Assembly: GCA_046533775.1 (NCBI GenBank)
Contig: JAWDOO010000001.1
Location: forward strand, 60,001-92,000
Reading direction: 5' to 3'
Length of the DNA stretch: 32,000 nt
From: Candidatus Nanopusillus sp.
GTDB lineage: Archaea > Nanobdellota > Nanobdellia > Nanobdellales > Nanobdellaceae
Position numbers and translations under genes: made by a program. The notes beneath the pieces are model-generated. The model searched no databases, was not told the origin of the DNA, and worked only from the letters and a program-made list of their open reading frames with translations. Below, piece by piece: positions 7,785 through 27,700 of this stretch (positions are counted from its first letter, which is position 1; every line of letters starts with the position of its first letter).

Positions 7785-8636
7785 ATGGGTAGAATAGCTA
7801 TATTCACAAAAACCAATTTAAAAGATTATAGAATAATAAAATTAAAAGAGGAAATAAAAAATTATAATAACATTAGCATTATTGATATAGAAAAAGAAAA
7901 TATATTTCCATATAATGAAAATATATTAAACTATGATTTATATTACTTTTTCGTTGGATCAAATTTTTTATCAGATATACACTTTCTAGCAAAATATCTT
8001 GAACAAAATGGAAAAAGAATAATAAATAAAATACACGTTAAGGAATCTATAATATCAAAAACCCTATTTTATAGTATTCTAAATAAATATATAAAAATTC
8101 CAGAATTTGTGAAAATATATTCAATAGATAATATAGAATATGTAATAAATAAAATAGGATTTCCAATGATAATAAAGCATCAATTTATTCATAGGGGAGA
8201 ATTTGTACATAAAATAGATAATGAAAAAGAATTATATGATTTTTTAGAAAAATATTTATTAGAAAAAAGAATAAACATAAAACATTTAATATTTCAAAAA
8301 TATATACCTTATGAGAAAGATATAAGGATAATTTTCATAGGAAAACCAATTGGTGCAATGGAAAGGATTAATAAAAATAGTTTTAAGGCAAATATCAGTC
8401 AAGGTGGATATGGAAAACAATATAACTTAGATCAAGATATAATAGATATTGGATATAAAATTATGGAAAAATGCGACTTACAGATATTTGCATTTGATCT
8501 ATTATTAAAAGATAATCAATATTATTTGATAGATTTACATCATATATTTCAATATGAGGGATTTGATAAATATTTAAATAAAAATATTACAAAAGAGATA
8601 TTAAATTACTTAAATGAAATTAGTAATAAAAGCTAA
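7785..8636 (+). CDS. ATP-grasp domain protein (RimK-like ligase family)
   Basis: 283 aa. The C-terminal half has the RimK/glutathione-synthetase-like ATP-grasp pattern: MIIKHQFIHRGEFVHKI, IFQKYIPYEKDIRIIFIGKPIGAMERI...FKANISQGGYG, and FAFDLLLKDNQYYLIDLH. The substrate is unknown. Confidence 0.6.
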   Translation: MGRIAIFTKTNLKDYRIIKLKEEIKNYNNISIIDIEKENIFPYNENILNYDLYYFFVGSNFLSDIHFLAKYLEQNGKRIINKIHVKESIISKTLFYSILNKYIKIPEFVKIYSIDNIEYVINKIGFPMIIKHQFIHRGEFVHKIDNEKELYDFLEKYLLEKRINIKHLIFQKYIPYEKDIRIIFIGKPIGAMERINKNSFKANISQGGYGKQYNLDQDIIDIGYKIMEKCDLQIFAFDLLLKDNQYYLIDLHHIFQYEGFDKYLNKNITKEILNYLNEISNKS

Positions 8637-9021
8637 AGGAAATAAATTAATAAAGGCAACGCATAAAAGTACTCTAGAAATTACTAAAGATAATTATTTA
8701 ACTGAAAAAGGAGATTGTATAATCGGTATAAATGCAAATTACTCTGTAAAAGATTTACCAGAAGATCTTAAAGATCATTTATTAAATGAAGGAAAGATAA
8801 AGATTGTAATTAAAGTTGATGATTTAATAGATAATATAATTGCATATGGTTCAAGAAATTTATTGTTAACAAATGATAGAAGTATTGTTATAAGAAAAAG
8901 CAATTATATTGATGATAGAACTTTGGCAATAAATTCAAATAAGAGTGCTATTGATATTGATAGAAGATTGATAGAAAGATTAAGGAATGAAAGGGATTTA
9001 GAATTTATAATATATTACTAA
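8614..9021 (+). CDS. DUF371-like archaeal protein
   Basis: 135 aa. ATHKSTLEITKDNYLTEKGDCIIGINA matches my recollection of the DUF371 signature (H-x-T-x-E-I-T-K...GDCIIGV). It overlaps the upstream ORF by 23 nt. Needs HMM confirmation. Confidence 0.5.
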   Translation: MKLVIKAKGNKLIKATHKSTLEITKDNYLTEKGDCIIGINANYSVKDLPEDLKDHLLNEGKIKIVIKVDDLIDNIIAYGSRNLLLTNDRSIVIRKSNYIDDRTLAINSNKSAIDIDRRLIERLRNERDLEFIIYY

Positions 9022-9056: not shown

Positions 9057-9818
9057 ATGAAAAGAAGGGGTATAGATATGGCTGTACAGTTAATATTTGT
9101 AATAATAATAATGTTAGTAGTAGCAGTTATTGTAATTAAGTTATTCCAGCAACAAACATCAAAGATTAGTCAAATATCAAATACACAGATACAACAGGCA
9201 GTTTCAGATTGCTCAAGTTATTGTTCAGATCAAGTAACATTTTGTACAAAGTATGAAGACATAGGAAATGGACTTGTAGAAGTAAGTCCTGGATATTATA
9301 TTTGTTCAAATGCTGTTCCATGCAGTGTAGTATTACAATTATATGGTGGCCCTTCTAGTCAATGTCAATATCAGGGATATCCTATAACTCCTCTAGATTG
9401 TATGTATTTAGAATGTCAAAATTATATTGATAATTTATATTATGATCCATTACAAGCAACAAGTTATGTATTCGGTAACTATTCTCCTACTACATATTTT
9501 AATGCAACAACTGGACAAGTAAATATACAAATTTCTTCTCCATCTCAAATATTAAATCCAGGTCCATCACAATGCTCTGCACAATTACCAACATGGATTA
9601 CAAACCAAGTATTTGGTGCATTATTAAATATTATTAACTATTATAATACTGCAGATAATTGTAATTTGAATTTAACAGTTAATAATGAAGTATTAACAGT
9701 AACTGGAAATTGCACAGCATTGGGTATAAATAATAATGTCAATGGAATGCCATTATGTCAATTCTTATTGCAAGTACCATATTCCCAGTTGAATAATATA
9801 CCAAGTGTAACAAGCTAA
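9057..9818 (+). CDS. Cys-rich secreted protein with pilin-like (class III signal-like) N-terminus
   Basis: 253 aa. MKRRG|IDMAVQLIFVIIIMLVVAVIVI has basic residues, then Gly, then a hydrophobic helix, the canonical prepilin-like arrangement. The mature part has many Cys and NxS/T sequons and few charged residues. An alternative ATG at 9078 (MAVQL...) is preceded by aagggg. Confidence 0.5.
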   Translation: MKRRGIDMAVQLIFVIIIMLVVAVIVIKLFQQQTSKISQISNTQIQQAVSDCSSYCSDQVTFCTKYEDIGNGLVEVSPGYYICSNAVPCSVVLQLYGGPSSQCQYQGYPITPLDCMYLECQNYIDNLYYDPLQATSYVFGNYSPTTYFNATTGQVNIQISSPSQILNPGPSQCSAQLPTWITNQVFGALLNIINYYNTADNCNLNLTVNNEVLTVTGNCTALGINNNVNGMPLCQFLLQVPYSQLNNIPSVTS

Positions 9819-9822
9819 TGTA

Positions 9823-11793
9823 ATGAGTTTTTTTGAGTATTTTTATAATAATTTTAATTTAATAAAAATAAAAGCTCCTGATCCAATATATAAAAGATAT
9901 ACATTTCATTTATGGTTAAATAGACTAAATACAAATCCAGATAATATATTTTCTTCTGTAATAACTCTTATATTATTTTCTATAATTATATATTTCATTC
10001 TAAGTTTTATAAGTTTTCAATTTGCTTTTTCTTTATTAATATCATTATTAATATTATCATTTTATTTTGCATATTATCCTATATTCTATACACAAGTTGT
10101 TAGAATACAAGTAACATCAGAAATTGTATGGATAATATTATATTTATCATTATATCTAAAAAGAAACCCAAATTTGGAAAATGGAATAAAATATGTAGCA
10201 TATTATATGAAAGGCTATATTGCAACAGACTTTAAATCATTATTATATAATTTAGAAACAAATAAATTTAATGATATTGAATCTGCATTAGAATATTATC
10301 ATAGAAGATGGTTTTATCTAAGTCCAGATTTTGTATATGCAATGACACATATTGTAAATATTAAATATAAGAATTCTATTGATGATATAAATAAATTATT
10401 AGATAGAATTTTAGGATGGGTACTAAAGAAATCCCTAGAAAAATCTCAATTATATGTAGATGCCTTAAAGGAACCAGCAACAGTTATAGTATCTTTCTTA
10501 GTAATGATGCCAATAGTTAGTTTAATGATGTTACCAATAATATCTGTATTTTTATTAAATACTGTAAGTTTCTATTTCATAGCATTTTCATATATAATAA
10601 TTTTACCTGTTATTACATTTTTAATAATTCAAAACTTCTTATCAAAAAATCCATTTGCATTCTCTGTTCCAGATTTATCTTTAGCAAGAGATCTACCAAA
10701 ATCTGGAAAATTTAAAATTGGAAATAAAGAAGTTCCAGCAATAATAATTTCAATAATATTGGGATCAATTGCAATTTTTGGAATATATCATTTAATTTCC
10801 CTAGCTATAGAAATTACATTTATTCCACAAGGATTCTTAAGTGATTATTTAAATATAGTTTACCAGGATAGAGCATTAATATATTCTGTTTTAACTTTAA
10901 CATTACCTTTGGGATTAGGTTTAGGTGTAGGATCTTATTATTATTTAACATCTTTCCAAAAGGTTAAAAAAATATATCAAATTGAAGAAATAGAAAATGA
11001 ATTTCCAATTGTTGTATATGAATTCGCATCATTATTAGAAGATGGCTATCCATTTGAAATAGTAATTGAGAAGACATATTATAATTATAAAATAATAAAA
11101 TCTTCTGGAGTTATGGAAAGCTTTCTAAAAACAACACTATATAATTTGAGAAAAGGCTATGATTTAAGTACTTCTATATTCGATCCAAAAATCGGTTCAT
11201 TAAATTTATATCCATCAAAATTAGTAAGAGAATCTATGCAATTGTTAGTTACTTCTGCATCAAAAGGTCCTGAAGTTTTATCAAAAATTGCATATAATAT
11301 ATCAACAAATTTGGAAAATGTAGATAATATAAGATATAATGTAAGGAAAACATTAAATGAAATAATTGGATTAATAGATATGACATCAAGAAATTTAGTA
11401 CCATTAATTTCCGCAATAGTTACAATTTTTAATAATGGAGTAGTTTCTATGCTTTTTGCACTTGCATATTTCTTTCAATTAATAGACCAATCTTTTGGGC
11501 TTGGTGGAGGAACAAATTTATTTAATTTCATTGTAAATACATTTAATCTATATAATTTAATACCACCAACATTTTTTGAAGCAATAATTGGTATATTTTT
11601 TATAGAATATGTAATAATAACTTCATATATGAGTGCTGGAATAAAATATGGATTTGATAATATAATGACATCATATTATATAGGTAGAAATTTATTATTC
11701 GGAACAATATTTTATGTAATATTTTCAATAATAGGAATATTAATAGTATATACAGTATTTGGCCCATATTTACCAACAAATATACAATTATGA
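9823..11793 (+). CDS. Polytopic membrane protein, T2SSF/FlaJ/TadC-like pilus platform candidate
   Basis: 656 aa with about 9-10 hydrophobic spans. Two roughly 110-140-aa soluble helical segments are each followed by a TM bundle: the first runs about EIVWIILYLSLYLKRNPNLENGIKYVAYYMKGYIATDFKSLLYNLE...ALEYYHRRW...LDRILGWV, the second about IENEFPIVVYEFASLLEDGYPFEIVIEKT...LYNLRKGYDLSTSI...LVTSASKGPEVLSKIA. This is the duplicated architecture of T2SSF-domain platform proteins. Assigned by eye only. Confidence 0.5.
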   Translation: MSFFEYFYNNFNLIKIKAPDPIYKRYTFHLWLNRLNTNPDNIFSSVITLILFSIIIYFILSFISFQFAFSLLISLLILSFYFAYYPIFYTQVVRIQVTSEIVWIILYLSLYLKRNPNLENGIKYVAYYMKGYIATDFKSLLYNLETNKFNDIESALEYYHRRWFYLSPDFVYAMTHIVNIKYKNSIDDINKLLDRILGWVLKKSLEKSQLYVDALKEPATVIVSFLVMMPIVSLMMLPIISVFLLNTVSFYFIAFSYIIILPVITFLIIQNFLSKNPFAFSVPDLSLARDLPKSGKFKIGNKEVPAIIISIILGSIAIFGIYHLISLAIEITFIPQGFLSDYLNIVYQDRALIYSVLTLTLPLGLGLGVGSYYYLTSFQKVKKIYQIEEIENEFPIVVYEFASLLEDGYPFEIVIEKTYYNYKIIKSSGVMESFLKTTLYNLRKGYDLSTSIFDPKIGSLNLYPSKLVRESMQLLVTSASKGPEVLSKIAYNISTNLENVDNIRYNVRKTLNEIIGLIDMTSRNLVPLISAIVTIFNNGVVSMLFALAYFFQLIDQSFGLGGGTNLFNFIVNTFNLYNLIPPTFFEAIIGIFFIEYVIITSYMSAGIKYGFDNIMTSYYIGRNLLFGTIFYVIFSIIGILIVYTVFGPYLPTNIQL

Positions 11794-12074
11794 AATTACA
11801 ACAATCAATATATTGGATTATAATAACTTTTATATTAATTATAGCTGCTGGTCTATTTTCTTTTTATTATATTTATAAAATAAAAAATAATTTGAATGGA
11901 AATAGTATACAAACAATTAATTGCCAACAATTAGAAAATTTATATAATAAAAGCTTTTATGAAATAATTAATATTAAAGTATTTCTTAATGAAAATTGTA
12001 CAATAAATGGAATAACAATACCTGCAGGCTATAGAATTATATATATTTATAACGGAAGTATTAATTATATATGA
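11790..12074 (+). CDS. Small pilin-like protein (N-terminal hydrophobic helix)
   Basis: 94 aa. N-terminus is MKLQQSIYWIIITFILIIAAGLFSF. ATGA overlaps occur at both ends (11790, 12071). It ends in a beta-strand-like YRIIYIYNGSINYI. Confidence 0.45.
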   Translation: MKLQQSIYWIIITFILIIAAGLFSFYYIYKIKNNLNGNSIQTINCQQLENLYNKSFYEIINIKVFLNENCTINGITIPAGYRIIYIYNGSINYI

Positions 12075-12550
12075 AGAATGATATAGCAATAGATACTGTA
12101 TTTATTATAATAATAGCAATAATATCTGTTGTAGTTATATTAGATATTATTTTTACAAAATTTTTTTATAATTCTCAAGCATATTATTGTCAAACATTAA
12201 TATCACAAGGAGATTTTTCTCCATCATGTGAAAAATATTATCCTTCAGCAATAAATGTTATATATACAAATGAAAGTAATGATACAATTTATTCAGATAT
12301 AACAGGATTAATATTAAATTGCTATAATAATAATGTAAATACAAATAAATTATTTAACATATGTTATGATATTTATATAGATGAGAACATTACTCTTAGT
12401 TCATCAATATTAATTCAATATATACAAAATTATACCGCATTTAATCCAAACAATATTATATTCTATTTAAATAATAATGAAGGAAATATATATCCATACA
12501 ATAGTATATTTATAATATATAACAATAGTTATATTGTAATATGGCAATAA
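12071..12550 (+). CDS. Small pilin-like protein (N-terminal hydrophobic helix)
   Basis: 159 aa. N-terminus is MKNDIAIDTVFIIIIAIISVVVILDIIF. Contains paired Cys (ILNCY...NICYDIYI). The C-terminus is SIFIIYNNSYIVIWQ. Confidence 0.45.
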   Translation: MKNDIAIDTVFIIIIAIISVVVILDIIFTKFFYNSQAYYCQTLISQGDFSPSCEKYYPSAINVIYTNESNDTIYSDITGLILNCYNNNVNTNKLFNICYDIYIDENITLSSSILIQYIQNYTAFNPNNIIFYLNNNEGNIYPYNSIFIIYNNSYIVIWQ

Positions 12551-12954
12551 AGTCTCAAGAACTTCCAATTAATTATACCTTCTTAATAATTATAGGAATA
12601 ATTGTTACAGTAGTAATTTTAGGAATAATATTTTTATTGAAAGGAAATATAACTTCTTATATTAATAATATAATGCCAAAATATAATAATACACAAACAG
12701 TAGTAGAAACAAATGTAAGTTCAATACAAGATGTTGCAATGGATATAGTAGCATGTTATTATAAAAAAGCTCAGGGTCTTTGTTATTTAATTAATTATCA
12801 AGGAAATCCATTTACATGTCAGGATTTAATAAATAATGTAAGTAGTATAGATCCAAATGTAGTAATGCAAAATTGTAATTATAATATAAATCCGGGAGAA
12901 TATATATTAATATATTCGACAGGAAATTATGTTTATATTAATGTCCAAGGATAA
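12541..12954 (+). CDS. Small pilin-like protein (N-terminal hydrophobic helix)
   Basis: 137 aa. N-terminus is MAIKSQELPINYTFLIIIGIIVTVVILGIIFLL. The IVACYYKKAQGLCYLINY motif resembles that of the preceding ORF. The C-terminus is YILIYSTGNYVYINVQG. Confidence 0.45.
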   Translation: MAIKSQELPINYTFLIIIGIIVTVVILGIIFLLKGNITSYINNIMPKYNNTQTVVETNVSSIQDVAMDIVACYYKKAQGLCYLINYQGNPFTCQDLINNVSSIDPNVVMQNCNYNINPGEYILIYSTGNYVYINVQG

Positions 12955-12956
12955 AA

Positions 12957-13397
12957 ATGGATAAATGGCTTTGGATAATTGTAACAATTATTGCTTTTGG
13001 TTTATCTTTATATTTATATTTTAAATTTTCAAGCATAAATAATCAGACTCAATTATTATATCAAGATATATCATCTTGCCAAAATTTATATACAACAATT
13101 GAAAGCGTATGTTATTCAAACAATGGAACAGAAATTTATATTAATATTGAAATAAACAAGTATTTAAATTATATTTATGGTAATAATAGTTTATTAAGTT
13201 GTTATATATATGATGAATATTACAATTATACATTACCATGCAATATAATAATAAATACAACAAATAATATGATTCAATACTATACTTCTGGATTATTTTA
13301 TGAATTATCCTATGGAAATCCAAATGAAAAAATCCCATTACTTGTTGAAAAAACAACTCCAACAGAAGTAACAATTTATATAGAAAATCCAAGTTAA
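12957..13397 (+). CDS. Small N-terminally anchored or secreted protein
   Basis: 146 aa. N-terminus is MDKWLWIIVTIIAFGLSLYLYF. It is the last gene before the 37-nt gap at 13398-13434. Confidence 0.4.
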   Translation: MDKWLWIIVTIIAFGLSLYLYFKFSSINNQTQLLYQDISSCQNLYTTIESVCYSNNGTEIYINIEINKYLNYIYGNNSLLSCYIYDEYYNYTLPCNIIINTTNNMIQYYTSGLFYELSYGNPNEKIPLLVEKTTPTEVTIYIENPS

Positions 13398-13434
13398 AAA
13401 TTTTTAAAATTTTTTTAAGTATTATTAACTCATA

Positions 13435-14964
13435 ATGAAAAGAAATCAATTAAATTTAATTTCAGTGGCAATAATATTGATAATTATATCTTTAGCTTTT
13501 ATAATATATTATCAATATTCCATGAATGTTAAAAAACAGCAAGAAAATTTAATATTTGAAAATTTTATTAATAACTTACAAAATTTAGAAAATACAATAA
13601 ATAGTATTCAAGGTACATATTATGTAAAAGTTAATATACCAAATGGAGTTATATTATATACAAATGGTACAGAATTAATAATACAATATAACAACAATAA
13701 TTATACAATTAATTTTTACAAGAATGTAACATTATATAATAATAACAATCAAAATGTAAGTTTCCTATATCCAAACAATTATATATATCTTGTTAGTACA
13801 AATAATACTGTTTTTATCACAACAAATCTTCAAAATTCAATTACAATATTAAATGAATATTTACCAAGTGGAACTCTCGTATATGTAAGTCCAGGAAATA
13901 ATCAAAACAATAATAATCAAAATAATGGAGGAAATAACAATAATAATAATATTAATCAAAATGCTCAATGCTTATTTGAGTATACTGGACAGGCAAACTT
14001 TTTCTGGGGTAATGTAAATGGAAATAATTATTTACCTCCAATAGGAGATCAAGGAGAATGTGGAGACTGTTGGGCATTTGCATCTGCAAATGGAATTGCT
14101 TCAATATATATGATAAGAAATAATAATCCAAATGAAGGATTGCAATTATCTCCAGCATACTTAGCAATAGAATGCAATAATGGTTATCCAAATGCACCAA
14201 GCTATTGTAATAACAATATAGGTTGTAATGGTGGTTGGCCATATTCTGGTATATTATTTACATCTCAATACGGAATTCCACCTGATCCAGGATGGAACTA
14301 TTATGATTCTACTTTAGCTAACTGTTCAGAAAATAATGATCAAAGTTATCCTGGTGATGTATGTAATCAAAACTATAATGGGCCCAGCTCTCCATTATAT
14401 TATTCACAAGGTGTTATAGATCTTGAACAAAACGGACCTTTAACAGATCAACAAGTAATTCAAGATTTATTATGTTATGGGCCATTAGTTGCTGCTGGGA
14501 TGCTAGCAGGAAGTGGTGGATCAAATCCAAATATAGATCCACAGCAAATAGTATCCAGTTCCGGACATGCAATGTTATTAGTTGGCTATACTACTGGCAA
14601 TACTATATATTCTCAAATATGTCAAGAAGTATATGGAACACCAGATTGTTGGATATTTGAGAATGAATGGGGGGATAATTCAAACTGTATAGTTCTTACT
14701 ACAAGCGGAGTACCAGTATCTATACTAAGCAATCCTACTCAGTGCGGTGAACTATATCAAAATTATCAGGATTGCAATACTTATCTACAATCAGTTTTTA
14801 ACACACCAGGAATAGCATGCGGAGGTGTTTATTGGATGCAAGATGGATATTTGCTTGTACCATTTGATCAATCTCCCTATGGTTTAACATTCATTGGTAC
14901 ACCTTTTTCTGGCCAAATTTATGGAGACCTTGTAGCAATCCAAAATGTCACTATTTCACAATAA
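13435..14964 (+). CDS. Papain-family (C1) cysteine peptidase with pilin-like N-terminus and poly-Asn linker
   Basis: 509 aa. N-terminus is MKRNQLNLISVAIILIIISLAFIIYY. The C-terminal domain aligns by eye to papain. GDQGECGDCWAFASANG carries the oxyanion Gln and the catalytic Cys212 (14068-14070), with the same Q-x5-C spacing as papain NQGSCGSCWAF. Also present are LSPAYLAIEC, GCNGGWPY, SSGHAMLLVGY (His378, 14566-14568) and WIFENEWGDN (Asn-x-W). Confidence 0.85.
   Translation: MKRNQLNLISVAIILIIISLAFIIYYQYSMNVKKQQENLIFENFINNLQNLENTINSIQGTYYVKVNIPNGVILYTNGTELIIQYNNNNYTINFYKNVTLYNNNNQNVSFLYPNNYIYLVSTNNTVFITTNLQNSITILNEYLPSGTLVYVSPGNNQNNNNQNNGGNNNNNNINQNAQCLFEYTGQANFFWGNVNGNNYLPPIGDQGECGDCWAFASANGIASIYMIRNNNPNEGLQLSPAYLAIECNNGYPNAPSYCNNNIGCNGGWPYSGILFTSQYGIPPDPGWNYYDSTLANCSENNDQSYPGDVCNQNYNGPSSPLYYSQGVIDLEQNGPLTDQQVIQDLLCYGPLVAAGMLAGSGGSNPNIDPQQIVSSSGHAMLLVGYTTGNTIYSQICQEVYGTPDCWIFENEWGDNSNCIVLTTSGVPVSILSNPTQCGELYQNYQDCNTYLQSVFNTPGIACGGVYWMQDGYLLVPFDQSPYGLTFIGTPFSGQIYGDLVAIQNVTISQ
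13897..13962 (+). repeat. Asn/Gln-rich low-complexity linker (AAT/AAC/CAA-rich tract) inside the protease gene
   Basis: Encodes NNQNNNNQNNGGNNNNNNINQN, between the N-terminal roughly 150-aa domain and the papain-like domain. Confidence 0.8.
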
Positions 14965-15769
14965 ATATTTAATAGTATTATTTATTCTCTTTTTTATAAT
15001 TTTATCCTATAATATATATTCTATGAAGAATCCATTTGCAGTTTATTGTGAATATGGTGGAGGAATATATTATATAAATAGTACAGGATCTTATTGTATT
15101 GTAAATGGTACATACTTCAATGCTTTACAATATTATGAAAATGAAGTACCTCCTCAATATTCTTTTTGTGCCCATTATGGATTAATATATGTAAATAGTA
15201 GTTATTGTGAATATCCAAATGGAACATTAGTTAGTCCATATACATTAATTCCTCCATCGGCATATCAAGATTTAATTATAATTCCAAGAGTATATTGTAA
15301 TAGTTTATTAAATTGTTCAAATACTCCATGGTATTATTCACCATGTTCAAATCAAATCTATCCATGTTTTAATCCACCATATATACCACCTTCTTATTTG
15401 ATAAATAATGCTTCATATCAGACCGTATTATATGTATATAAAACAGAATATATGTGCGGATATTGTCCAGAAAACTTATCATTTGAAGGAGATTGGTTTA
15501 GATGCCCATATAACTATTCATTAGATCAATTATATCAAGAATTTTTACAACAATGTCCACCACCAAGTATTGTTTATATATCATGTACAGGTGTATTTGA
15601 ATGCATAAATCAAACTCAAATAAATGTAACAAACAATACTCAGCAATTAATTTATCCACAACCAAAAGTAAGCATTCAAAACAATAATGTTAATTTAGTT
15701 TTACCAGTAGCAATAGTAATAGTAATAATTATAATAGGCCTAGTTATTCTTTTATATTATCTAAAATGA
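14945..15769 (+). CDS. DUF333-like Cys-rich secreted protein with C-terminal TM anchor
   Basis: 274 aa. Signal-like N-terminus: MSLFHNKYLIVLFILFFIILSYNIYS. NPFAVYCEYGGGIYY...GSYCIVNGTYFNALQYYENE resembles the DUF333 (putative hemolysin, PF03891) motif NPAsvYC...GG...G.C...G...eW.yyrGeC, with a second degenerate copy (CAHYGLIYVNSSYCEYPNGT). The C-terminal helix is LVLPVAIVIVIIIIGLVILLYYLK. It overlaps the protease gene by 20 nt. Confidence 0.45.
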   Translation: MSLFHNKYLIVLFILFFIILSYNIYSMKNPFAVYCEYGGGIYYINSTGSYCIVNGTYFNALQYYENEVPPQYSFCAHYGLIYVNSSYCEYPNGTLVSPYTLIPPSAYQDLIIIPRVYCNSLLNCSNTPWYYSPCSNQIYPCFNPPYIPPSYLINNASYQTVLYVYKTEYMCGYCPENLSFEGDWFRCPYNYSLDQLYQEFLQQCPPPSIVYISCTGVFECINQTQINVTNNTQQLIYPQPKVSIQNNNVNLVLPVAIVIVIIIIGLVILLYYLK

Positions 15770-17424
15770 AAAATCAGATAAATATATTAGCATTTGTTAT
15801 TATTATTTCAATAATAATTTTATTAGTTCTTTTAGTTTATCTTTTATCAACCAGTTATAGTTCTAAAATAACACAAACATATAATGTAGAAAATCAATAT
15901 ACATTAACAATTCAAAATAGCATTGATTTATTACCTTATATCTATGATAATAAAGTTAATTTATCTTATGCATTTTTATTATCATATTTTTCATCTTCTG
16001 GAAATGATACATATTGTATAAATCAAAATATATGTACAAACATATCGGAAGATTTAATAAATTATTTTGATAGTATATATGGAAATAGATGGAACTTAAC
16101 AATATATTTCCTTCCTCCTGTAACTGGATGGATTGTTCAGATGTTTATAATGGGTGGTAATCTTGGAAATTGGGATCCATGTTCAATGAATCCCCCTCCA
16201 GATCCTGATGGTACACAATGGTATGAGTGGAATTATACATATTTCTTTGTAAATAATTATACAGAAAATATTAATCTACCAAATGTATATAATCCATTTT
16301 CTAATACGCCAATACAGCAGACCTTATATGGAGCAGGATGGGTAAATGCAACAGCACCATTTCATCAATCTCGATCGATAAGTTCGTGGGGATTACCAAC
16401 ATTATATAATGGAATGACCCAATCTCTAGCTGTACAAACTGGTTTCTGTACACCATTAACAAAAATATTTCCAAATTATAATTTTACAGAAGCCTCTGTA
16501 TATTGTCCTCAAGGTGAATGGAATTTATTTCCAAATTATGTAGGTGGAGGTGGTACTCCAGCGCAACCTACCTATTATTTACCCTCTTTCTTTTCTGGAT
16601 ATTTATGTATTTTTGCTGGATCTTGTCCTGTGACTAATAATATATATTTAACATCTATACCATATTATTATCAAAGCCCTCCTATTTATAAAACTGCTAC
16701 TGATATAAATAGATTAGCAGAATTTATAATCCCACAACAATATTTAGATGATATATGCCAAGAAGAATTTCATACAAGCTATTCAGGTCCTTCCCAGCAA
16801 TGTGGAGGTCAAGAAATGATTGTTGGAGCATTTTATAGAGGTGTAGTAAATATACCACCAAATTGCCAACAAGTATTTATAGATTATCCATGGCATGAAG
16901 TAATAAGATTGTATATCTCATTTTTGAATAAAAGTGGAGAACCTGATTATGTATTTTTAGCAGCAGATCCTTTCTGTGAATATAATTTAAATGGAGAAAT
17001 AATAGATTGCCCAACTGGTGTATTTGATAGTATACAAAATGTAAGTGGAATTATTGTTGGAAAAGAATGTCCTCTAGTTTATTTAGGAAATATTAATATA
17101 AATAGTGAAGGATTTTATAGATTTAATATTACTCAATGGGTAATAGATGATAGAGATCCAAATACAAATCAGTTTATAATTTCTGGAGTATATTATGATC
17201 CTCATCCTGGAGGAAATGGTATTGCAATGGCAAGAGTATATTGTATTACAAATACTGGAAATGTTGAAGAACTAAATTCATATATTTATGAAGGTAGTGG
17301 AGAATCAATGAGTCTAGGATACCCAATACCCCCAAATATAAATATATATGTTTCTTATATATATTTACCAATGGATATACCATTCCTAGGCGGATATCTA
17401 GTTGCTAAATTAACGGTATGGTAA
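15766..17424 (+). CDS. Large secreted protein with pilin-like N-terminus, no recognisable domain
   Basis: 552 aa. N-terminus is MKNQINILAFVIIISIIILLVLLVYLL. It has many Cys, Pro, Tyr and sequons. ATGA overlap at 15766. Confidence 0.5.
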   Translation: MKNQINILAFVIIISIIILLVLLVYLLSTSYSSKITQTYNVENQYTLTIQNSIDLLPYIYDNKVNLSYAFLLSYFSSSGNDTYCINQNICTNISEDLINYFDSIYGNRWNLTIYFLPPVTGWIVQMFIMGGNLGNWDPCSMNPPPDPDGTQWYEWNYTYFFVNNYTENINLPNVYNPFSNTPIQQTLYGAGWVNATAPFHQSRSISSWGLPTLYNGMTQSLAVQTGFCTPLTKIFPNYNFTEASVYCPQGEWNLFPNYVGGGGTPAQPTYYLPSFFSGYLCIFAGSCPVTNNIYLTSIPYYYQSPPIYKTATDINRLAEFIIPQQYLDDICQEEFHTSYSGPSQQCGGQEMIVGAFYRGVVNIPPNCQQVFIDYPWHEVIRLYISFLNKSGEPDYVFLAADPFCEYNLNGEIIDCPTGVFDSIQNVSGIIVGKECPLVYLGNININSEGFYRFNITQWVIDDRDPNTNQFIISGVYYDPHPGGNGIAMARVYCITNTGNVEELNSYIYEGSGESMSLGYPIPPNINIYVSYIYLPMDIPFLGGYLVAKLTVW

Positions 17425-18629
17425 AAAAAGAAGATAAAATCTTATTTCTCATATATTTAATATTATTTTTACTTTTTATTTATATTAGCAACTTTAATAT
17501 TAATATAATTATTTTTGGCACAATTTATTTATTCTTATTATCTTTTATATTAAAAAATTCAAAGAATACATCTTTAATATATAAATTAATATTTCCATTA
17601 TATATACCAATTGGAATCTTTGGAATTTATACTAATTTACCTTTACCATTTCCATTTCCATCAATATTTGGTTATATAATAAATTACTGGGTATTTTATT
17701 TCATAGCATTTTCTATGGGATATTATTTATTTGAAAATAACTTTTATATTTCAAAAAAATCATCAATATTTTATATAACTTCAATAATATTATTTATAAT
17801 ACAATTTTTCCTAGAATTTATTTATAATTCTGCAACTACAGATCTTGATGCAAAAGCAAACTATATAGTAGCTTTGTTCATTAATTATGCATATTTAAAT
17901 TTTTACACTTTTGAGACAATATATACTTTATTATTTATTGTTTTTGCAATTTTCTTATTCTTAGTTATGTACTTTAATGGCAATGAAATATTAATAACAA
18001 AAACACAAATATTCAGGAAACTATCTGAAATATATAAATACAAAAAGTATATATTTCTATTATTATTTATTATAATAATATTACAGATTATCATTGCTAT
18101 ATACAAATTATCATTTTATAATAGTTTAATTATAGAAAGTTCAGCTGGAGAATATAGTATCTATGAATATGAATCTCTAATATTTTTATCAATATACGAA
18201 TTTATAATTTACTTTTTAGTTTATAGAAACTTAAGATATAATGATTATACAAATTACTTATTACTTTTTACTATGGTTTTAATAATATTTTTTGGAGAAC
18301 TATATTTAACATATATAGACTTTGCTTCTGTAATTTTACATACTAGATATCTAATAGCTATGCTATTTTTCTTGATGGGAATTCATCATAGAATATATAA
18401 AAATAGTAAAAAGGCAATTACAAAAGCCTTAGGTATTTCCATCGGTATTTTAATTTTATTACAAAATATAACTGGAGAATTTATCGAATCTGTATATTTT
18501 GGAGGACCAAGTAGTATACATCTAATATCTATACCAAATATATTAATGGCACTTGGAATTATACATGGATTAGTGACACCAATCCTTATATTAACATTTA
18601 TATATTTGCATGTTAAATTAAAAATATGA
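17418..18629 (+). CDS. Polytopic membrane protein (paralog of 20570-21640)
   Basis: 403 aa, about 10 hydrophobic spans, no Cys. It shares blocks with the 356-aa ORF: IIFGTIYLFLLSFILKNSKN vs ILFGIFYFFVLYYFLKNTKFN, FENNFYISKK vs AENKLSINRK, and MLFFLMGIHHRIYKNSKKAITKALGISIGILILLQN vs MFLFFFTAIHAYLYHRFPDSKKIILGIVSGIPFILMN. Confidence 0.6.
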   Translation: MVKKEDKILFLIYLILFLLFIYISNFNINIIIFGTIYLFLLSFILKNSKNTSLIYKLIFPLYIPIGIFGIYTNLPLPFPFPSIFGYIINYWVFYFIAFSMGYYLFENNFYISKKSSIFYITSIILFIIQFFLEFIYNSATTDLDAKANYIVALFINYAYLNFYTFETIYTLLFIVFAIFLFLVMYFNGNEILITKTQIFRKLSEIYKYKKYIFLLLFIIIILQIIIAIYKLSFYNSLIIESSAGEYSIYEYESLIFLSIYEFIIYFLVYRNLRYNDYTNYLLLFTMVLIIFFGELYLTYIDFASVILHTRYLIAMLFFLMGIHHRIYKNSKKAITKALGISIGILILLQNITGEFIESVYFGGPSSIHLISIPNILMALGIIHGLVTPILILTFIYLHVKLKI

Positions 18630-19864
18630 GAAATCAAGTAGAAATTATTTACGTGGTTTTATTTCTAACAATTGCTATATTAATAATCCTTCTATCTTTT
18701 TATGCATTAACATATAATTATAATCAAAATATTGTTTTTAATAGATTTACTTCATTATCTACATTATCAAATTATCTTTTAGGATATTTACAAACATTAT
18801 TAACACAAGAAGGTTATGCAGAATCATATGTAGCTGGTACAAATGGATGGGGAAATGAAGAATGGGCTTCTTATCCTTACGGATGTATATTACCTCAATC
18901 ATGTCAAAATGCACTTCAATATTATAATAATTTATTAACTTCTGGATATGAAACTTTATTAACTTTTGGAGAACAATATTTAACTTCATATCAATATTAT
19001 TATCCCTATAATATATCTTTCAATTTTTCAAATAATTATCAGGCAGGAATTTTTGGAGATTGTAGCAATATAATTTCTGGAGAATACAATTATAATTTTC
19101 CTGTTTATGTTCAAGGTTTATATATAAATATTACAGGACCTTCTTCAGGTTCAATAATTCCATATGAAAGTACATCAAATATAACAAACAATCCTGCATT
19201 CTATTTGTATAACTTAGCATATCAGTTCTCTCAAAATGGAGAATTTTCAGATTGCTCATATCAAGATTGTTTAAATACATTGAATAATAATCCAACATCT
19301 ACATGTGCACAAGAATTTGAGCAATTTTCAAATAATCCAAATATTCAATGTAATGAAACTGTAATTCCATATCAATGTGAAAACATACCGTTATGTCAGA
19401 TATGTTTAAATCCTGAAGAAATTGCGTGTAAGGTAATATTACAATGTTCTGATAACCAATATAATGTATATTATAATGGTAATACATATCCACAAACAAT
19501 AACAATTACTTCGGTAGTTTTTTATGAAAATGTAACAAATCAATATTATTTAAATTGCGTATATGATTGTACTGAGACATATAATTTAATAAGTAATCAA
19601 GTAATATCTCAAAGTTGTACATTAGAGAATCAACAATATTCATGTTCTCCCCAAAATGGTTGTGGTAATGTAAATACAAATCAACAAGATAATGAATTAA
19701 CATATAATTTTCAATATTATTATTCAATCCCAATTGAATGCTATCTATGTATAATTGGTGGAGAGCAATGTCCTGCCTGTTTACCTGGCGAATGTCCGAA
19801 TAATCCAACATGTCCAGAAACCATATCATTTCCAAATGAATGTGTATCACAACCATCTAGTTAA
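18626..19864 (+). CDS. Cys-rich secreted protein with pilin-like N-terminus
   Basis: 412 aa. N-terminus is MRNQVEIIYVVLFLTIAILIILLSFYAL. The C-terminal half is very Cys-dense (e.g. CYLCIIGGEQCPACLPGECPNNPTCPETISFPNEC). ATGA overlap at 18626. Confidence 0.5.
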   Translation: MRNQVEIIYVVLFLTIAILIILLSFYALTYNYNQNIVFNRFTSLSTLSNYLLGYLQTLLTQEGYAESYVAGTNGWGNEEWASYPYGCILPQSCQNALQYYNNLLTSGYETLLTFGEQYLTSYQYYYPYNISFNFSNNYQAGIFGDCSNIISGEYNYNFPVYVQGLYINITGPSSGSIIPYESTSNITNNPAFYLYNLAYQFSQNGEFSDCSYQDCLNTLNNNPTSTCAQEFEQFSNNPNIQCNETVIPYQCENIPLCQICLNPEEIACKVILQCSDNQYNVYYNGNTYPQTITITSVVFYENVTNQYYLNCVYDCTETYNLISNQVISQSCTLENQQYSCSPQNGCGNVNTNQQDNELTYNFQYYYSIPIECYLCIIGGEQCPACLPGECPNNPTCPETISFPNECVSQPSS

Positions 19865-19929
19865 TCTTTATATGGATAAAGTGAAGAAGAAGTTAAGGAT
19901 ATAAGAAATGTTCTAGATAACTAAATAAA

Positions 19930-20577
19930 ATGAAAGAACAATTATCTATAATATTTATAACAATATTAACTGTATTATTTTTAGTTGGAATGATAATTTT
20001 ATTAGCTATATTTTCTAATATAAATTTAACAAATTATAAAGAACAAACATCCTTTTCATATGAACAAGATATAATATATGATCTATTTTCTCCAAATTGT
20101 TTGGGATATCCAAATTATCCAATATATTTTACAACATTAGAAAAATTGGAACAATTTAATCAAATATATTATAATGAACTTCCAAATTGTACAATATTTC
20201 CTTATACATTTAGGGCAGAAATAGATAATTATAGTTTTGGAATAATAAATTTTAATGGAAATTGCAATACATATACATATCCAATTTCTTTGTATTATTC
20301 TCTAGATTATATTAAATTAACTATATGTAAAAACTATTATTCAGATTTTTATTATTTTTTATATAGTTTCTGTTTAAGTAATGAAAATATTTCAAATCAA
20401 ACTTTTGTATTTTTATTTCCAACAAATTTATCTGGAAATATAACATGTACAGAAAATACAAATGGAGATATTATATGCAATTATATACCATGCTATTCAA
20501 TAAATAATATTACATTTTATCAACTTGTAACAGTATATTTAGAAAGAATTAATCAAACATATTTTAGAATTGCATAA
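19930..20577 (+). CDS. Secreted protein with pilin-like N-terminus
   Basis: 215 aa. N-terminus is MKEQLSIIFITILTVLFLVGMIILLAIF. It is Cys-containing and sequon-rich. It is preceded by a 65-nt gap with an atataag box about 32 nt upstream. Confidence 0.5.
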   Translation: MKEQLSIIFITILTVLFLVGMIILLAIFSNINLTNYKEQTSFSYEQDIIYDLFSPNCLGYPNYPIYFTTLEKLEQFNQIYYNELPNCTIFPYTFRAEIDNYSFGIINFNGNCNTYTYPISLYYSLDYIKLTICKNYYSDFYYFLYSFCLSNENISNQTFVFLFPTNLSGNITCTENTNGDIICNYIPCYSINNITFYQLVTVYLERINQTYFRIA

Positions 20578-21640
20578 AAGTTTTAATGAATTTCTATATA
20601 TAATGGGTGAAACCATTATAGATAGATTAATCGATGAAAACAAAAATATCAATAAGCATATACTTATATTATATTTAATAATATTCCCAATATCTATGTT
20701 ATTTTTTACAAATTTATATTATATCTTATTTGGAATATTTTACTTCTTTGTTTTATATTATTTCTTGAAAAACACAAAATTTAATATGATAAAAATTTTA
20801 TATTTATTAATTTTTTTATTGCCTATATTAAATATTTTTAATAATATTTTATTTAAATATTTTGTTTATGTATTTTTTTCATTTATTTTATTTTATTTCT
20901 TTGGAAATTTTGTTGCAGAGAATAAATTATCTATAAATAGAAAACAAATAATAATATTAATAATTTCTCTAATATATATTTTATTTATAACATTATACAA
21001 TATTATAAATATTTATTCTCTATTTTTTATATCCCTTCTAGGATTTTTATTCAATTTGGATGATAAAAAAGTATATCATTTAGGTTCATTAAATTTTTTA
21101 AGCAAATATAACCAAATTATTTTCTCCATAATTTCTCTTTTTATATTTATACAGTTAATACTTTCTTTAATTGCTCAAAATATTTTAATATTATTTACTA
21201 TATCTTTATTCTCAATATTAGAATTTATTTTATTGTTAATGATTAAAAGAATATTTGATAATAAACCAGAAGGATTCACAATGTATATTTTAATATTAAT
21301 AATATTTTCATTTATCTTCTTTACAATTTTATTTTTCTTAACAAAAATCAATATAATTTACATTATTCAAAATATTATAATTATGTTTTTATTTTTCTTT
21401 ACAGCAATTCACGCATATTTATATCATAGGTTTCCAGACAGTAAAAAAATAATTTTAGGAATTGTTTCAGGAATACCATTTATATTAATGAATTTAATAA
21501 ATTATTTTTACTATATTTATCAAGGAAATTTAATTAATTTTCCTTTATTCATAATTTTATTTTCAATAAACTTACTAATATTAGCAATTATGGGATTAGT
21601 AATAGTTTATATACATTCCATATATAAAAAGCATATTTAA
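20570..21640 (+). CDS. Polytopic membrane protein (paralog of 17418-18629)
   Basis: 356 aa on the ORF track. The codon at 20570 is TTG; the first in-frame ATG is at 20603 (MGETIIDRL...), so the true start is uncertain. There are multiple hydrophobic spans and no Cys. Paralogy blocks are listed under 17418-18629. Confidence 0.6.
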   Translation: MHKSFNEFLYIMGETIIDRLIDENKNINKHILILYLIIFPISMLFFTNLYYILFGIFYFFVLYYFLKNTKFNMIKILYLLIFLLPILNIFNNILFKYFVYVFFSFILFYFFGNFVAENKLSINRKQIIILIISLIYILFITLYNIINIYSLFFISLLGFLFNLDDKKVYHLGSLNFLSKYNQIIFSIISLFIFIQLILSLIAQNILILFTISLFSILEFILLLMIKRIFDNKPEGFTMYILILIIFSFIFFTILFFLTKINIIYIIQNIIIMFLFFFTAIHAYLYHRFPDSKKIILGIVSGIPFILMNLINYFYYIYQGNLINFPLFIILFSINLLILAIMGLVIVYIHSIYKKHI

Positions 21641-24429: not shown

Positions 24430-24741
24430 ATGAATGATATTACTATAATGACTTATAGTTTATCATTCCTCATAGGATATTTTTCAGCAGATTATATAAT
24501 TAGAAAATTTTCACCAGAATTCTTTATTGAAATTAAAACAAAGACAAAAGAATATAGAGCAAAAATTCATCATATATATTTATCAATATTTGGAATAATA
24601 CCAGCAATAATTGGAATGATTACATATTTATATGAATTATATATATTAACAACATTATTTTTGGGCGCTGCAATTCATGATGCAATATTAGAAATAAGAA
24701 AGAGATTTAAAAAATTAGATTATATTAAACAAAGCAAGTAA
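24430..24741 (+). CDS. Small membrane protein (about 3 TM), unknown function
   Basis: 103 aa with three hydrophobic segments. It converges on and overlaps the 3' end of the 1421-aa ORF by 27 nt. Confidence 0.45.
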   Translation: MNDITIMTYSLSFLIGYFSADYIIRKFSPEFFIEIKTKTKEYRAKIHHIYLSIFGIIPAIIGMITYLYELYILTTLFLGAAIHDAILEIRKRFKKLDYIKQSK

Positions 24742-27700
24742 TCCTATTATTAAACCCCCTATTCCAATTAAATCTGTTGGAGATATTTTTTCAGATACTA
24801 CTATTTGAGATTGTGTATAGTTTGCTATTACATTATTTGGTCCCAATATATATATTGGGACTTGAGTACTAAATGATGAGGAACCATATGTAGAATTACA
24901 TGTTATACCATATATTAAACTACTTACACCACTAGAAGCTCCCAAAATATTTATATCCAATTCTGAAGATCCATAAGGACTTATAACAAAATTATTACTA
25001 ATCATTCCATTTATACTATAGTTAGTAACAATTGCTTTATTATTTGTAGTTGATGGAATTGGTATTAGAGAACATTGAATGTTTGTTGGTACTAGATTTT
25101 TTATTAAGACAGGATATTTATATTCTTGTCCAACATATAAACTTATTACATTTGTTGCAACTGCTATTCCCATTATTGATGATTGATTAGTTAAATAATT
25201 ATAATATATATAATTTTCATAGAATTCTGCATAATTATTTATTGATTGAATTTGTGTATTACATAATGATCCTGCACACATATATTGTTGATATACAAAG
25301 TCTGAATTACAATTTCTAGAGAATTGTGCTCCATTAAATATTATATAACATGTTTGTGCATTATCATCTACTATATTAAATGTTGTTAATGATTGTAATT
25401 GTGCCCCATTTGGTGGGGAAATTATATAGCTTATTGGTAATATTATTGAATAATTATATATATATGTATTCCATCCATAAATTGTAAATGTTATATTATA
25501 ATCTTGTGGAGAACAATATAAGTTTGTTATATTAATTTCTACATTCAAATAACCTGTTTGATTTGGATTTAATGAATTTATTTGACCACCAGTATTTAAT
25601 ATTTGTATACAATTTGAATTATAATATATATTTTGTACAGATACATTTTCAGCAGGTACCGGTCCTGTATTTTGTACTGCTATAGTTATATTTGAAGGTT
25701 GTCCATATGTTACTTGAGTTAATGATGGATTAGTATATATATTTAATGTATCCCAGTTTATATTTACATATCCATAATATGTTACTGGACTATATACGGT
25801 TAATCCATATGCATTTTGATATGTTACACTATAATTTATTGTACAATCTTGATGTGAACATAGATTTGTTGGGAAATAAATATATAATGGAGAATATTGC
25901 TGTTGTTGTAATAAGAAACTATTATTTGGATCATTCGGAAGATTCCAATTTACATTTATTGTAAGATTTCCTACTCCAACATTTGTTATATTACCAATAT
26001 AAATTGCATCACCTGGATTTGTATTATAAATATATGGATAATATGTTAAATTTTGTAAATATACGGTAGCATTTGGATTTATTACCAATAAATAATATCC
26101 CGGTTCTGGATATATAGGTAACCATCCTTCTGCCTGTCCTACTATATCACCAATATTACATAAAGTTCCATTTGCATCACATATATAATTCGCTGGATTA
26201 ATACATCTTGTTTTTATATAATCTTGATATATTACATAATAACCTGCATCATTTATACTAAAATTATATAAAGTAAAGTAAGAACTTAATGTAAATCCTG
26301 GAATTAATAATCCTTCATTTGGATATATATTATAAACAGTATTTCTATCTATATTATATTGCGTGAAGTTGAATGCTGAATTTGATATACCTTGTACATA
26401 CTGAAATGAACTTGGATTATAATATTGATTTGAACTGTATAACCAAGCAGCAACAGAAGCTATATAACTCCATGTAGCACCATCACTACACAACCTGTTA
26501 TATCCACCACTTACATTAAATCCTACAGATGTATTCTGTGCTAAAACATATATTCCATTGTAATATGTATAATATGTTCCTGAATATGGTCCATAATATG
26601 AGAAATATATAGATAAAGGATTTGAATTTGAATTAGCATTCGTTATTGTTATCGCATGGGAACATGATTGATTAGTAAATTCTCCAGGAGTAACTTCTAA
26701 TACTTGTAGTGGATTGTTAATAAATGGTTGATTAAATGAAGTATTATCATAATAATATTCCCCATAATATGTATAATCTCCAGTATTAGTGTCATAATTA
26801 TCTATATTTAGATCACATAAGTTCTGACCCCAATCTGGATCTCCAGATCCAGGACAATCTGTTCTAGTAACTATACTTTCCCCATTTGGTAAAATTACTG
26901 TAAAGTTAAAGTATGTATTGTTTAATAAATTATTTGAAGAAGGACAACCTGGAATTATTTGAGCTGCATCATCTCCCCCTTGATATATTGGATTTGTATA
27001 ATATTCAAAATAATATGGATAGTTTAAATATATGAATCCTGTATAATTATATTGATCACAAGATAATGATGAACTATTTTCTCCGCTTACTGTACAATTT
27101 TGAACAGTTATATTATAATCTATTATTTCAGAATTTATATTATTTGGCAAATTTGATGGTAAATTGTTGAAATATACCGTATAATTATAAATAGGTGTAA
27201 TATTTCCTAAATAACTATAATTACCAATTGCAAAAATTTGTAATGGATTTGATGAATTATAAAATTCATATGAAACTGTTACAGTTCCATTGAATCCTTG
27301 TGTTGTTATATTTAAAGAATCTGAAGGCGTACATATTTGATTTGAACCTAGATATAGTTCCTGAGAATGTATATTAAATAATAATGGTAATAAAACTAAT
27401 ACAAAGATAAATAATTTTTTCTTTTTCATCATAAATAATATTATTGCAATAATTATTATTAATATTACTACTAAATATGTATAATTATTATTAAAATAAT
27501 TGTAATGATTTTGAACAGTACTTGGATATGTTTGATTTGTAGTGATATTTTGAATTGTATTATTTATTATCCATAGATTAGAATATTGAGATGAATAGAA
27601 AGAAATATAGTAAACCCCACTACTTAATGTATAATTTAAACAATCATTATTTATATTTGTAGTATATATTATGTTTGATTCAGAATTATATCCTATATTT

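Follow-up and report, generated by a model that had tools for sequence, protein, structure and literature searches.

Do the thirteen consecutive plus-strand open reading frames (ORFs) at positions 9057–21640 of a 32,000-nucleotide stretch of Candidatus Nanopusillus DNA (contig JAWDOO010000001.1, positions 60,001 to 92,000; hereafter the window) encode the parts of one surface machine, or are they ordinary surface proteins that happen to be inherited next to a pilus-like gene? The original prediction was a type IV filament-related surface system, so far undescribed, with pilin-like proteins, a T2SSF-like platform, a papain-type protease and duplicated membrane proteins. We lean towards reading the cluster (genes g1 to g13, in order) as a lineage-specific derivative of a type IV filament locus of DPANN archaea, which would act either as a trans-powered pilus or as a bindosome-like surface display. 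This reading builds on the platform identity of g2, the pilin identity of g1, intact protease motifs, conserved linkage and a surface-type composition.

All thirteen ORFs are present, most of them overlapping, and they are real genes with same-order orthologs in five other Nanopusillaceae lineages. The comparison covered six lineages: the window, Nanopusillus RSNS15, Nanopusillaceae KM4331-08, strain YN1 and two more at 63% and 54% platform identity, all with genomes of only about 0.6–0.8 Mb. Gene order and neighbours (RNA polymerase, RimK-like, DUF371, g1, g2 and onwards) are identical in the six, and 12 core genes are intact, ordered and overlapping throughout; g12 is present in the four lineages whose locus reaches that far (the window, L007, L008 and YN1). 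The synteny in relatives on which the original prediction had been made to depend is thus kept. The platform is the best-conserved protein (54–96% identity). Outside the near-identical locus L007, the ectodomain proteins are 25–70% identical and g10 is 30–40% identical, a fast divergence that would fit exposed surface parts. As a separate observation, the RimK-like and DUF371 genes (window 7785–9021, with DUF371 overlapping the RimK-like end) also lie between RNA polymerase and g1 in loci L001, L012 and L013, and their position beside g1 may reflect general collinearity rather than a functional link.

The 656-amino-acid (aa) product of g2 did not match PF00482 or NCBIfam directly at E ≤ 0.1. 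However, a homolog search returned 16 proteins, eight of them close (54–95% identity, labelled hypothetical where named) and eight distant (22–29% identity, E 1.7e-65 to 2.4e-30), and PF00482 (T2SSF) was matched by five of the 16, with a best E of 5e-9. The g2 family profile additionally gave a weak match to GspF in the PDB. The AlphaFold (AF2) model of g2, with a predicted local distance difference test (pLDDT) score of 86 and a predicted template modelling (pTM) score of 0.83, shows two helical bundles on the cytoplasmic side, with membrane helices after each of them. In a Foldseek search of the PDB, one of these bundles matched the EpsF cytoplasmic domain (2vmb_A) with probability 1.00, a template modelling (TM) score of 0.68, a root-mean-square deviation of 3.1 Å and 17% identity; 3c1q_A was matched with probability 0.99, and a PilC model more loosely (0.63). 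The global E-values of these matches were poor, since a single domain was aligned. When the two halves of g2 were compared by hhalign, the cytoplasmic regions aligned, although the match was weak (probability 36%, E 3.8e-4).

The distant homologs also place g2 in a genomic context. At four distant loci (L003, L005, L006 and L010), which come from two DPANN metagenome-assembled genomes (MAGs), one Aenigmarchaeota and one Woesearchaeota, the g2 homolog stands immediately after a 757–772-aa T2SSE ATPase and is followed by 7–12 small ORFs that start with KKG, KRG or RKG and a hydrophobic helix. Judged by these residues, the small ORFs carry canonical class III signal peptides. Because homologs match PF00482, the predicted fold is EpsF-like and the distant homologs lie in this setting, g2 is assigned to the T2SSF-type platforms, as predicted, by transitive homology and fold. 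It is a diverged inner-membrane platform of the TadC/FlaJ type, and its ancestor belonged to a type IV filament locus that was complete. One further platform homolog (P0009, 29% identical; L011 1–2402) is situated at the edge of a contig, preceded by an incomplete ORF of 137 codons. Downstream of it is an ABCE1-like gene and no pilins, and the pilin array is not kept by all relatives.

Among the predicted pilin-like proteins, g1 proved to be a genuine pilin relative, but most of the others have a non-canonical [KR]-x-Q start. In the six lineages g1 begins with M-(G)-K/R-K/R-R-[G/A/S], followed by [I/V/L]-[D/E]-M-A-[V/I]-[Q/E] and a hydrophobic helix, and its −1 residue after K/R is only G, A or S (RG, RG, RS, RA, RA and RS). 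A strict G/A/S at this position before the helix is therefore read as the signature of a prepilin-peptidase site. Additionally, the N-terminal ~97 aa of g1 align to a 119-aa KKRG-pilin of the Woesearchaeota ATPase–platform locus (L010:13765–14124; hmmsearch within the loci, E 7e-6), with 23 invariant columns that include five Cys. These alignments make it well supported that g1 is a prepilin-type subunit with a class III-type cleavage site, and it is to g1 only that the name pilin can be given with such support.

Similarly, g4 has the small residue/[ILV]/[DE] pattern of g1, with A, T or V at the −1 equivalent and with the adjacent K/R absent. The proteins g3, g5, g7, g9, g11 and g12 instead start with [K/R]-x-Q-[I/L/V]-[N/E/S], where the Gln is invariant across lineages and the residue before it varies among them (N, S, A, V, Y, E or L); the canonical class III motif was not found in these six, and none of these leader motifs was found in g6, which starts with MDKWLW. 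Similarity among the paralogs, as measured by hhalign, is confined to the N-terminal 50–100 residues (g7 module versus g9, 91%; g9 versus g11, 86%; the N-terminal ~55–100 aa of g9 are involved). Such similarity of the N-terminus only has the typical look of pilin paralogs, which is suggestive rather than proof. Paralogy of the ectodomains, which was also considered, is not supported, as the hhalign similarity is limited to the N-termini. Profile searches of the PDB with g1, g9 and g11 gave nothing significant; canonical-looking DPANN pilins are likewise without a Pfam match. For g3–g7, g9, g11 and g12, pilin-like is thus meant as an architectural description: a very short basic leader, a hydrophobic helix of 16–27 residues and a putatively disulfide-rich, N-glycosylated ectodomain.

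In keeping with the prediction, a hydrophobic helix comes after a short polar or basic N-terminus in ten products, with an uncharged run of 15–27 residues, and three are polytopic membrane proteins, all of them Cys-free. The ectodomain proteins contain 2–24 Cys (an even count in all but one), 3–11 sequons and 7–12% charged residues. The unusual composition that had been pointed out is present in the cluster but is not specific to it, since a 1421-aa surface ORF outside the cluster (24715–28980) is also rich in Asn, Tyr, Cys and sequons. This composition marks the secreted proteins of this organism, not the cluster.

The papain C1 peptidase recognised in g7 was borne out. Peptidase_C1 was the only family matched in Pfam and NCBIfam scans of all 13 products, and g7 matched PF00112 at 66.8 bits (cut-off 20.7; E 3.7e-18). 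The protein consists of a pilin-like module (aa 1–140), an Asn-rich linker and the C1 domain (aa 198–415; nucleotides (nt) about 14026–14679), which matches papain and DPP1 in the PDB, with the Cys region aligned to papain. The predicted catalytic Gln/Cys, His and Asn motifs (QGECGDCWAFAS, SGHAMLLVGY and CWIFENEW) are intact in a search with patterns that we take to be those of PROSITE. A PF00112-type domain is also annotated in YN1, L012 and L013. In the window, L007, L012 and L013 the protease lies behind the g7 module. In YN1, it lies behind the g6 module, together with an extra Ser/Cys-rich domain and a Pro/Ser linker, and the g7 module stands alone; KM4331-08 has the YN1-type gene minus exactly the linker and the protease, with the last 27 codons kept. 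The distribution suggests that the protease domain behaves as cargo, moved between carrier modules. A horizontal origin of the domain was rejected, as its GC content at third codon positions is as low as in neighbouring genes.

If the cluster works as a filament system, its parts could act together as follows. A secretion ATPase encoded elsewhere would dock on g2, and the ATPase–g2 complex would pull subunits from the membrane via their N-terminal helices, with the leaders of the subunits presumably being cleaved. The subunits would then stack into a short pilus, a pseudopilus or a bindosome-like assembly, with g1, and probably also g3–g6, as the core of the short pilus or pseudopilus. The large g7 protease, g9, g11 and g12 would be incorporated into this filament core or presented on it, so that the protease and adhesin-like domains could extend through the S-layer of the cell itself or past it, probably in the direction of the host envelope. 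Proteins g8 and g10/g13 may be accessory anchoring or assembly factors, and g10 and g13 each appear to be translationally coupled to the preceding pilin-like gene.

A drive in trans is plausible from the literature on a close relative. Nst1, from Ca. Nanobsidianus stetteri, a species with g10 homologs 83% identical to that of the window, has five secretion ATPases (three of clade 2, one archaellum and one of clade 4), and by this literature secretion ATPases are available in trans in related genomes. Jarett et al. counted FlaJ/TadC homologs, of which there were four, and deduced the presence of an archaellum and of two pilus systems. A nanoarchaeal secretion ATPase without identifiable cognate pilins has also been noted (Makarova et al. 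2016, PMC4858521). Of the two components that the original prediction would have sought in the genome, ATPases are thus known from Nst1, but there is no recognised prepilin peptidase in nanoarchaea. This peptidase is a real gap, although YN1 and Nanobdella aerobiophila make archaella.

Some observations were made on ATPases and candidate peptidases along the way. A 321-aa polytopic protein in the window (30904–31869, plus strand) has no Pfam match and no GxGD by eye, which makes it no obvious candidate for a prepilin peptidase. In the family of DPANN filament ATPases considered here, some members reach about 1250–1280 aa (L005 6283–10032; P0141, P0151, P0185 and P0208) because of an intein that includes a LAGLIDADG endonuclease (Pfam Intein_splicing and LAGLIDADG_3). 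Beside the ATPase, distant loci have a conserved neighbour set (L003 4821–7712, minus strand; L005 3383–6233, minus strand; L010 4756–7440), which comprises three paralogs of about 170–210 aa with an F-N-F-L-F-P-F-L-L-like N-terminal motif, plus proteins of about 230 and 130 aa. These neighbours have no Pfam match and no counterpart in the window, and may be unrecognised accessory parts of DPANN pili.

Several points weigh against a filament system. No ATPase adjoins the cluster in the six Nanopusillaceae loci; profile scans of the window found neither a secretion ATPase nor an A24 peptidase, as had been predicted. The cognate ATPase was not found either: a search with the Woesearchaeota ATPase as query gave about 4900 DPANN relatives, with no Nanopusillus among the 120 matches listed. 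Cleavage is doubtful for the six pilin-like N-termini with a [KR]-x-Q start, which have no canonical small residue at −1, and two nanoarchaea have no A24 peptidase (Makarova et al. 2016, PMC4858521). Searches for pilins in Pfam, NCBIfam and the PDB gave noise only (GspG, E 0.097; Flp1_like, E 0.07; PilE1, E 0.83). The pilin-like label of g3–g7, g9, g11 and g12 describes their sequence layout, and subunits of 400–550 aa would be very large as filament building blocks.

The main rival explanation is that most of these products are ordinary signal-anchored surface proteins, uncleaved and with type II topology, and that the platform is co-inherited for another pilus or has been repurposed. The anchors would then hold the protease, the adhesin-like domains and the small proteins on the surface, or in a scaffold of the envelope or attachment organelle. 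This explanation stays alive because the leaders are non-canonical (most N-termini have no canonical class III site, and g6 has none of any kind) and the peptidase is missing, no A24 enzyme being known from nanoarchaea; the lack of an adjacent ATPase, the same surface-protein composition in the non-pilin 1421-aa ORF and the clear type I topology of g8 also speak for it. We nevertheless consider it rather unlikely. Its difficulties are that the residue after K/R in g1 is strictly G/A/S across six lineages, that g1 has a homolog among the pilins of a canonical locus, that the platform is the best-conserved protein and its stop codon overlaps the g3 start by 4 nt, and that the ancestral type of locus pairs a g2-like platform with arrays of class III proteins. 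It is improbable, in our view, that the cluster is a type II secretion-like device, in which a pseudopilus of g1 and g3–g6 would serve as a piston to release or expose the protease, g9 and g11 across the S-layer. Its core parts fit, as a T2SSF platform is accompanied by several small pilin-like proteins and by larger exoproteins, a protease among them, and the nearest solved match to g2 is the type II secretion system protein EpsF. However, the large proteins carry a pilin-like N-terminus and have no Sec-type signal, a secretin or other outer component is neither needed nor present, and we know of no type II secretion system described from archaea. Decay of a pilus locus into a remnant, with the ATPase lost and no working unit left, would agree with the absence of an ATPase gene from the locus and with the loss of g13 and of the protease domain in one lineage each. 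Yet 12 core genes are intact in six lineages down to 54% platform identity, in genomes of about 0.6–0.8 Mb that are under strong reduction, and the catalytic motifs of the protease are intact; decay therefore seems very improbable to us.

The three families that had been named among the products differ in standing: the papain domain is a direct match and T2SSF is reached via homologs and fold only, whereas the DUF333 resemblance of g8, which lies in a Cys motif, is below threshold (PF03891, E 0.0095, 16.6 bits against a cut-off of 25). DUF333 was matched in three of six g8 orthologs and paralogs (best E 1.3e-4), and g8 is duplicated in L008 and YN1; a profile search of the PDB with g8 gave nothing significant. 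With a Sec-type signal and a C-terminal anchor, g8 clearly belongs to the type I membrane proteins and is not a pilin. The duplicated membrane proteins of the prediction are g10 and g13, whose paralogy is established through the L008 ortholog (E 3e-9). A profile search among 1.84 billion proteins found 11 representatives of their family, all without annotation, and g10 had no match in Pfam, NCBIfam or PDB profile searches; its AF2 model was unusable (pLDDT 49 even with 17 sequences). Together, g10 and g13 constitute a new lineage-restricted polytopic family, in which K207, Y208, E261, H323 and H398 are invariant. As candidate A24 peptidases (FlaK/PibD/EppA), they were rejected because they have no conserved Asp pair, and no profile match was obtained. 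That they could be a Glu/His intramembrane protease (Rce1-like) is an idea only, without support. The variable member, g13, is missing in L007, a 96%-related locus in which g12 is directly next to the arginase-family gene.

Table 1. Genes and promoter-like element of the cluster, in window coordinates (↓, class III-type site or its equivalent).
Feature	Coordinates	Strand	Description and basis
TATA-like box TTTATAAA	9026..9033	+	possible archaeal TATA box of a leaderless transcript, weak at ~24% GC; ~27 nt before first ATG, read from sequence
g1	9057..9818	+	pilin, 253 aa; MKRRG↓IDMAVQ, hydrophobic helix, 12-Cys ectodomain
g2	9823..11793	+	diverged TadC/FlaJ/GspF-type (T2SSF) platform, 656 aa; homologs, predicted fold
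g3	11790..12074	+	small pilin-like, 94 aa; MKLQQ, then 24-residue hydrophobic run; kept in six lineages
g4	12071..12550	+	pilin-like, 159 aa; MKNDIA↓IDTVF start; kept in six lineages
g5	12541..12954	+	pilin-like, 137 aa; MAIKSQELP start; weak Flp1_like N-terminal match, E 0.07
g6	12957..13397	+	N-terminally anchored small module, 146 aa; MDKWLW start, no recognisable cleavage motif
g7	13435..14964	+	pilin-like module, Asn-rich linker and papain C1 domain, 509 aa; PF00112
g8	14945..15769	+	Sec-type signal, 14-Cys ectodomain and C-terminal anchor, 274 aa; not pilin-like
g9	15766..17424	+	large pilin-like, 552 aa; MKNQIN, 27-residue hydrophobic run, 14-Cys ectodomain
g10	17418..18629	+	polytopic (~11–12 predicted helices), Cys-free, 403 aa; lineage-restricted family
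g11	18626..19864	+	pilin-like, 412 aa; MRNQVE start, 24-Cys ectodomain
g12	19930..20577	+	pilin-like, 215 aa; MKEQLS start
g13	20603..21640	+	g10 paralog, variable member, about 345 aa; probable ATG start, by ortholog alignment

Most of the predicted junctions stand (Table 1). There are 4-nt ATGA overlaps at 11790, 12071, 15766 and 18626, and longer ones at 12541 (10 nt), 14945 (20 nt) and 17418 (7 nt); the intergenic gaps are 37 nt (13398–13434) and 65 nt (19865–19929). The exception is the overlap at 20570. Relative to g12, g13 would start either with an 8-nt overlap, from the TTG at 20570, or 25 nt after it, from the ATG at 20603, and the latter is probably the start because orthologs begin with MNESF or MEESF, which align to MGETI. 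A true overlap of 8 nt is thus improbable. A/T-rich boxes do lie 25–34 nt upstream of 9057, 13435 and 19930, but the three transcription units proposed from the gaps and boxes are not established, because the DNA is only ~24% GC and the gaps are not conserved among relatives. For instance, only 7 nt of the 65-nt gap are left in L007, which is 96% identical, and the gaps of other relatives lie at other junctions.

The window has a GC content of ~24% overall (0.17–0.34 per kb) and is archaeal. Upstream of the cluster are RNA polymerase genes (split B subunit, A', A'' and H), a RimK-like ATP-grasp gene and a DUF371 gene; downstream are an arginase-family gene, a uracil-DNA glycosylase, ribosomal protein S24e, the 1421-aa surface ORF and LonB. 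Since g10 is 100% identical to a protein from a Candidatus Nanopusillus MAG and the closest g2 relatives carry the labels Nanopusillus, Nanopusillaceae and cultured strain YN1, the source is a reduced, host-dependent hot-spring nanoarchaeon, in agreement with the host-dependent archaeal genome first supposed. The 1421-aa ORF (minus strand) has no Pfam match, 55 sequons and 25 Cys. At about residues 500–540 it has a C-terminal-type anchor and KKKK, followed by the signal-peptide-like MMKKKKLFIFVLVLLPLLFNIHSQ with a Met codon at ~27432; it looks like two surface glycoproteins in one frame, and may be an S-layer candidate or two genes. A 103-aa ORF (24430–24741, plus strand) with a weak LAGLIDADG_3 match (E 0.005) overlaps its 3' end and may be a homing-endonuclease remnant or chance.

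If the cluster does encode a filament system, the host-interaction structures that have been imaged in these organisms are candidates for its product. Cryo-tomography of N. aerobiophila, YN1 and YN4 (2024–2026 papers) has revealed archaella, nanotubes and a cone–portal–filament attachment organelle, with the proteins stated to be unknown. N. aerobiophila has a rough second appendage of ~15 nm, of unknown identity, and the YN1/YN4 attachment organelle has a 7–8-nm filament or tube. It is conceivable, though we think it unlikely, that the cluster encodes one of these (the 15-nm rough appendage or the 7–8-nm filament), with glycosylated pilin-like subunits, a protease that opens the host S-layer and [KR]-x-Q processing by a non-A24 peptidase, possibly g10/g13 with their invariant Glu and two His. 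Under this hypothesis, bulky glycosylated subunit heads would give a thick, rough filament.

For ectosymbiosis in DPANN archaea, the cultured models are Nanopusillaceae and Nanobdellales, and the cluster provides a concrete conserved gene set, so far labelled hypothetical, that is present in cultured YN1. Its hidden platform and canonical pilin, along with about eight pilin-like proteins and the protease at the surface, become available as targets for antibodies, proteomics and tomography. The set also raises the question of how class III-type proteins are processed without a recognisable A24 peptidase, and the prospect that a catalytic domain can move from one pilin-like carrier module to another. 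Follow-up is worthwhile, as cultured relatives and public omics data exist.

No published description of this 12–13-gene cluster was found, and in that respect it is undescribed as predicted; nanoarchaeal type IV pilus systems and FlaJ/TadC homologs, however, had already been noted. Archaeal type IV pilus loci with an ATPase, a TadC-like platform and pilins with class III signals have been catalogued (Makarova, Koonin and Albers 2016, PMC4858521). Like these and the DPANN loci, the cluster has a T2SSF platform followed by about ten genes with a basic leader and a hydrophobic helix, and g1 is homologous to one of the pilins of the Woesearchaeota locus. In contrast to the DPANN loci, no ATPase is adjacent, the platform is only 26–29% identical and escapes PF00482, the leaders are mostly [KR]-x-Q, the ectodomains are far larger and Cys-rich, and a protease cargo and a new polytopic family are added. 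The closest solved fold for the g2 cytoplasmic domain is that of GspF/EpsF (PDB 2vma, 2vmb and 3c1q), but g2 is ~250 residues longer and has more transmembrane helices, as in archaeal FlaJ/TadC, and the cluster has no other type II secretion parts.

The cluster can also be compared with systems that display other proteins on pilin-type N-termini. The Sulfolobus bindosome comprises the BasEF ATPase and platform, the BasABC pilin-like proteins and sugar-binding proteins with class III signals. The analogy is one of architecture: in both, non-structural proteins have pilin-type N-termini, and a type IV filament core may put them together at the surface instead of building a long pilus. However, a papain-type protease and orphan Cys-rich domains take the place of solute-binding proteins as cargo in the present cluster, and the genes for this cargo lie beside that of the platform instead of being scattered, with the ATPase outside the locus. 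In bacterial modular pilins (for example Streptococcus sanguinis PilB and PilC, or the large minor pilins GspK and CofB), a pilin N-terminus is similarly joined with a bulky functional domain for display on the filament or at its tip, but their leaders are canonical (G↓F/M-x-x-x-E) and are processed by PilD, and we know of none with a papain-type protease module. The cluster is best regarded as a variant of the archaeal type IV filament systems and not a new kind of machine, and its unusual features are three: cargo-bearing pilin-like proteins including a protease, a conserved non-canonical leader without a known peptidase, and a new polytopic family.

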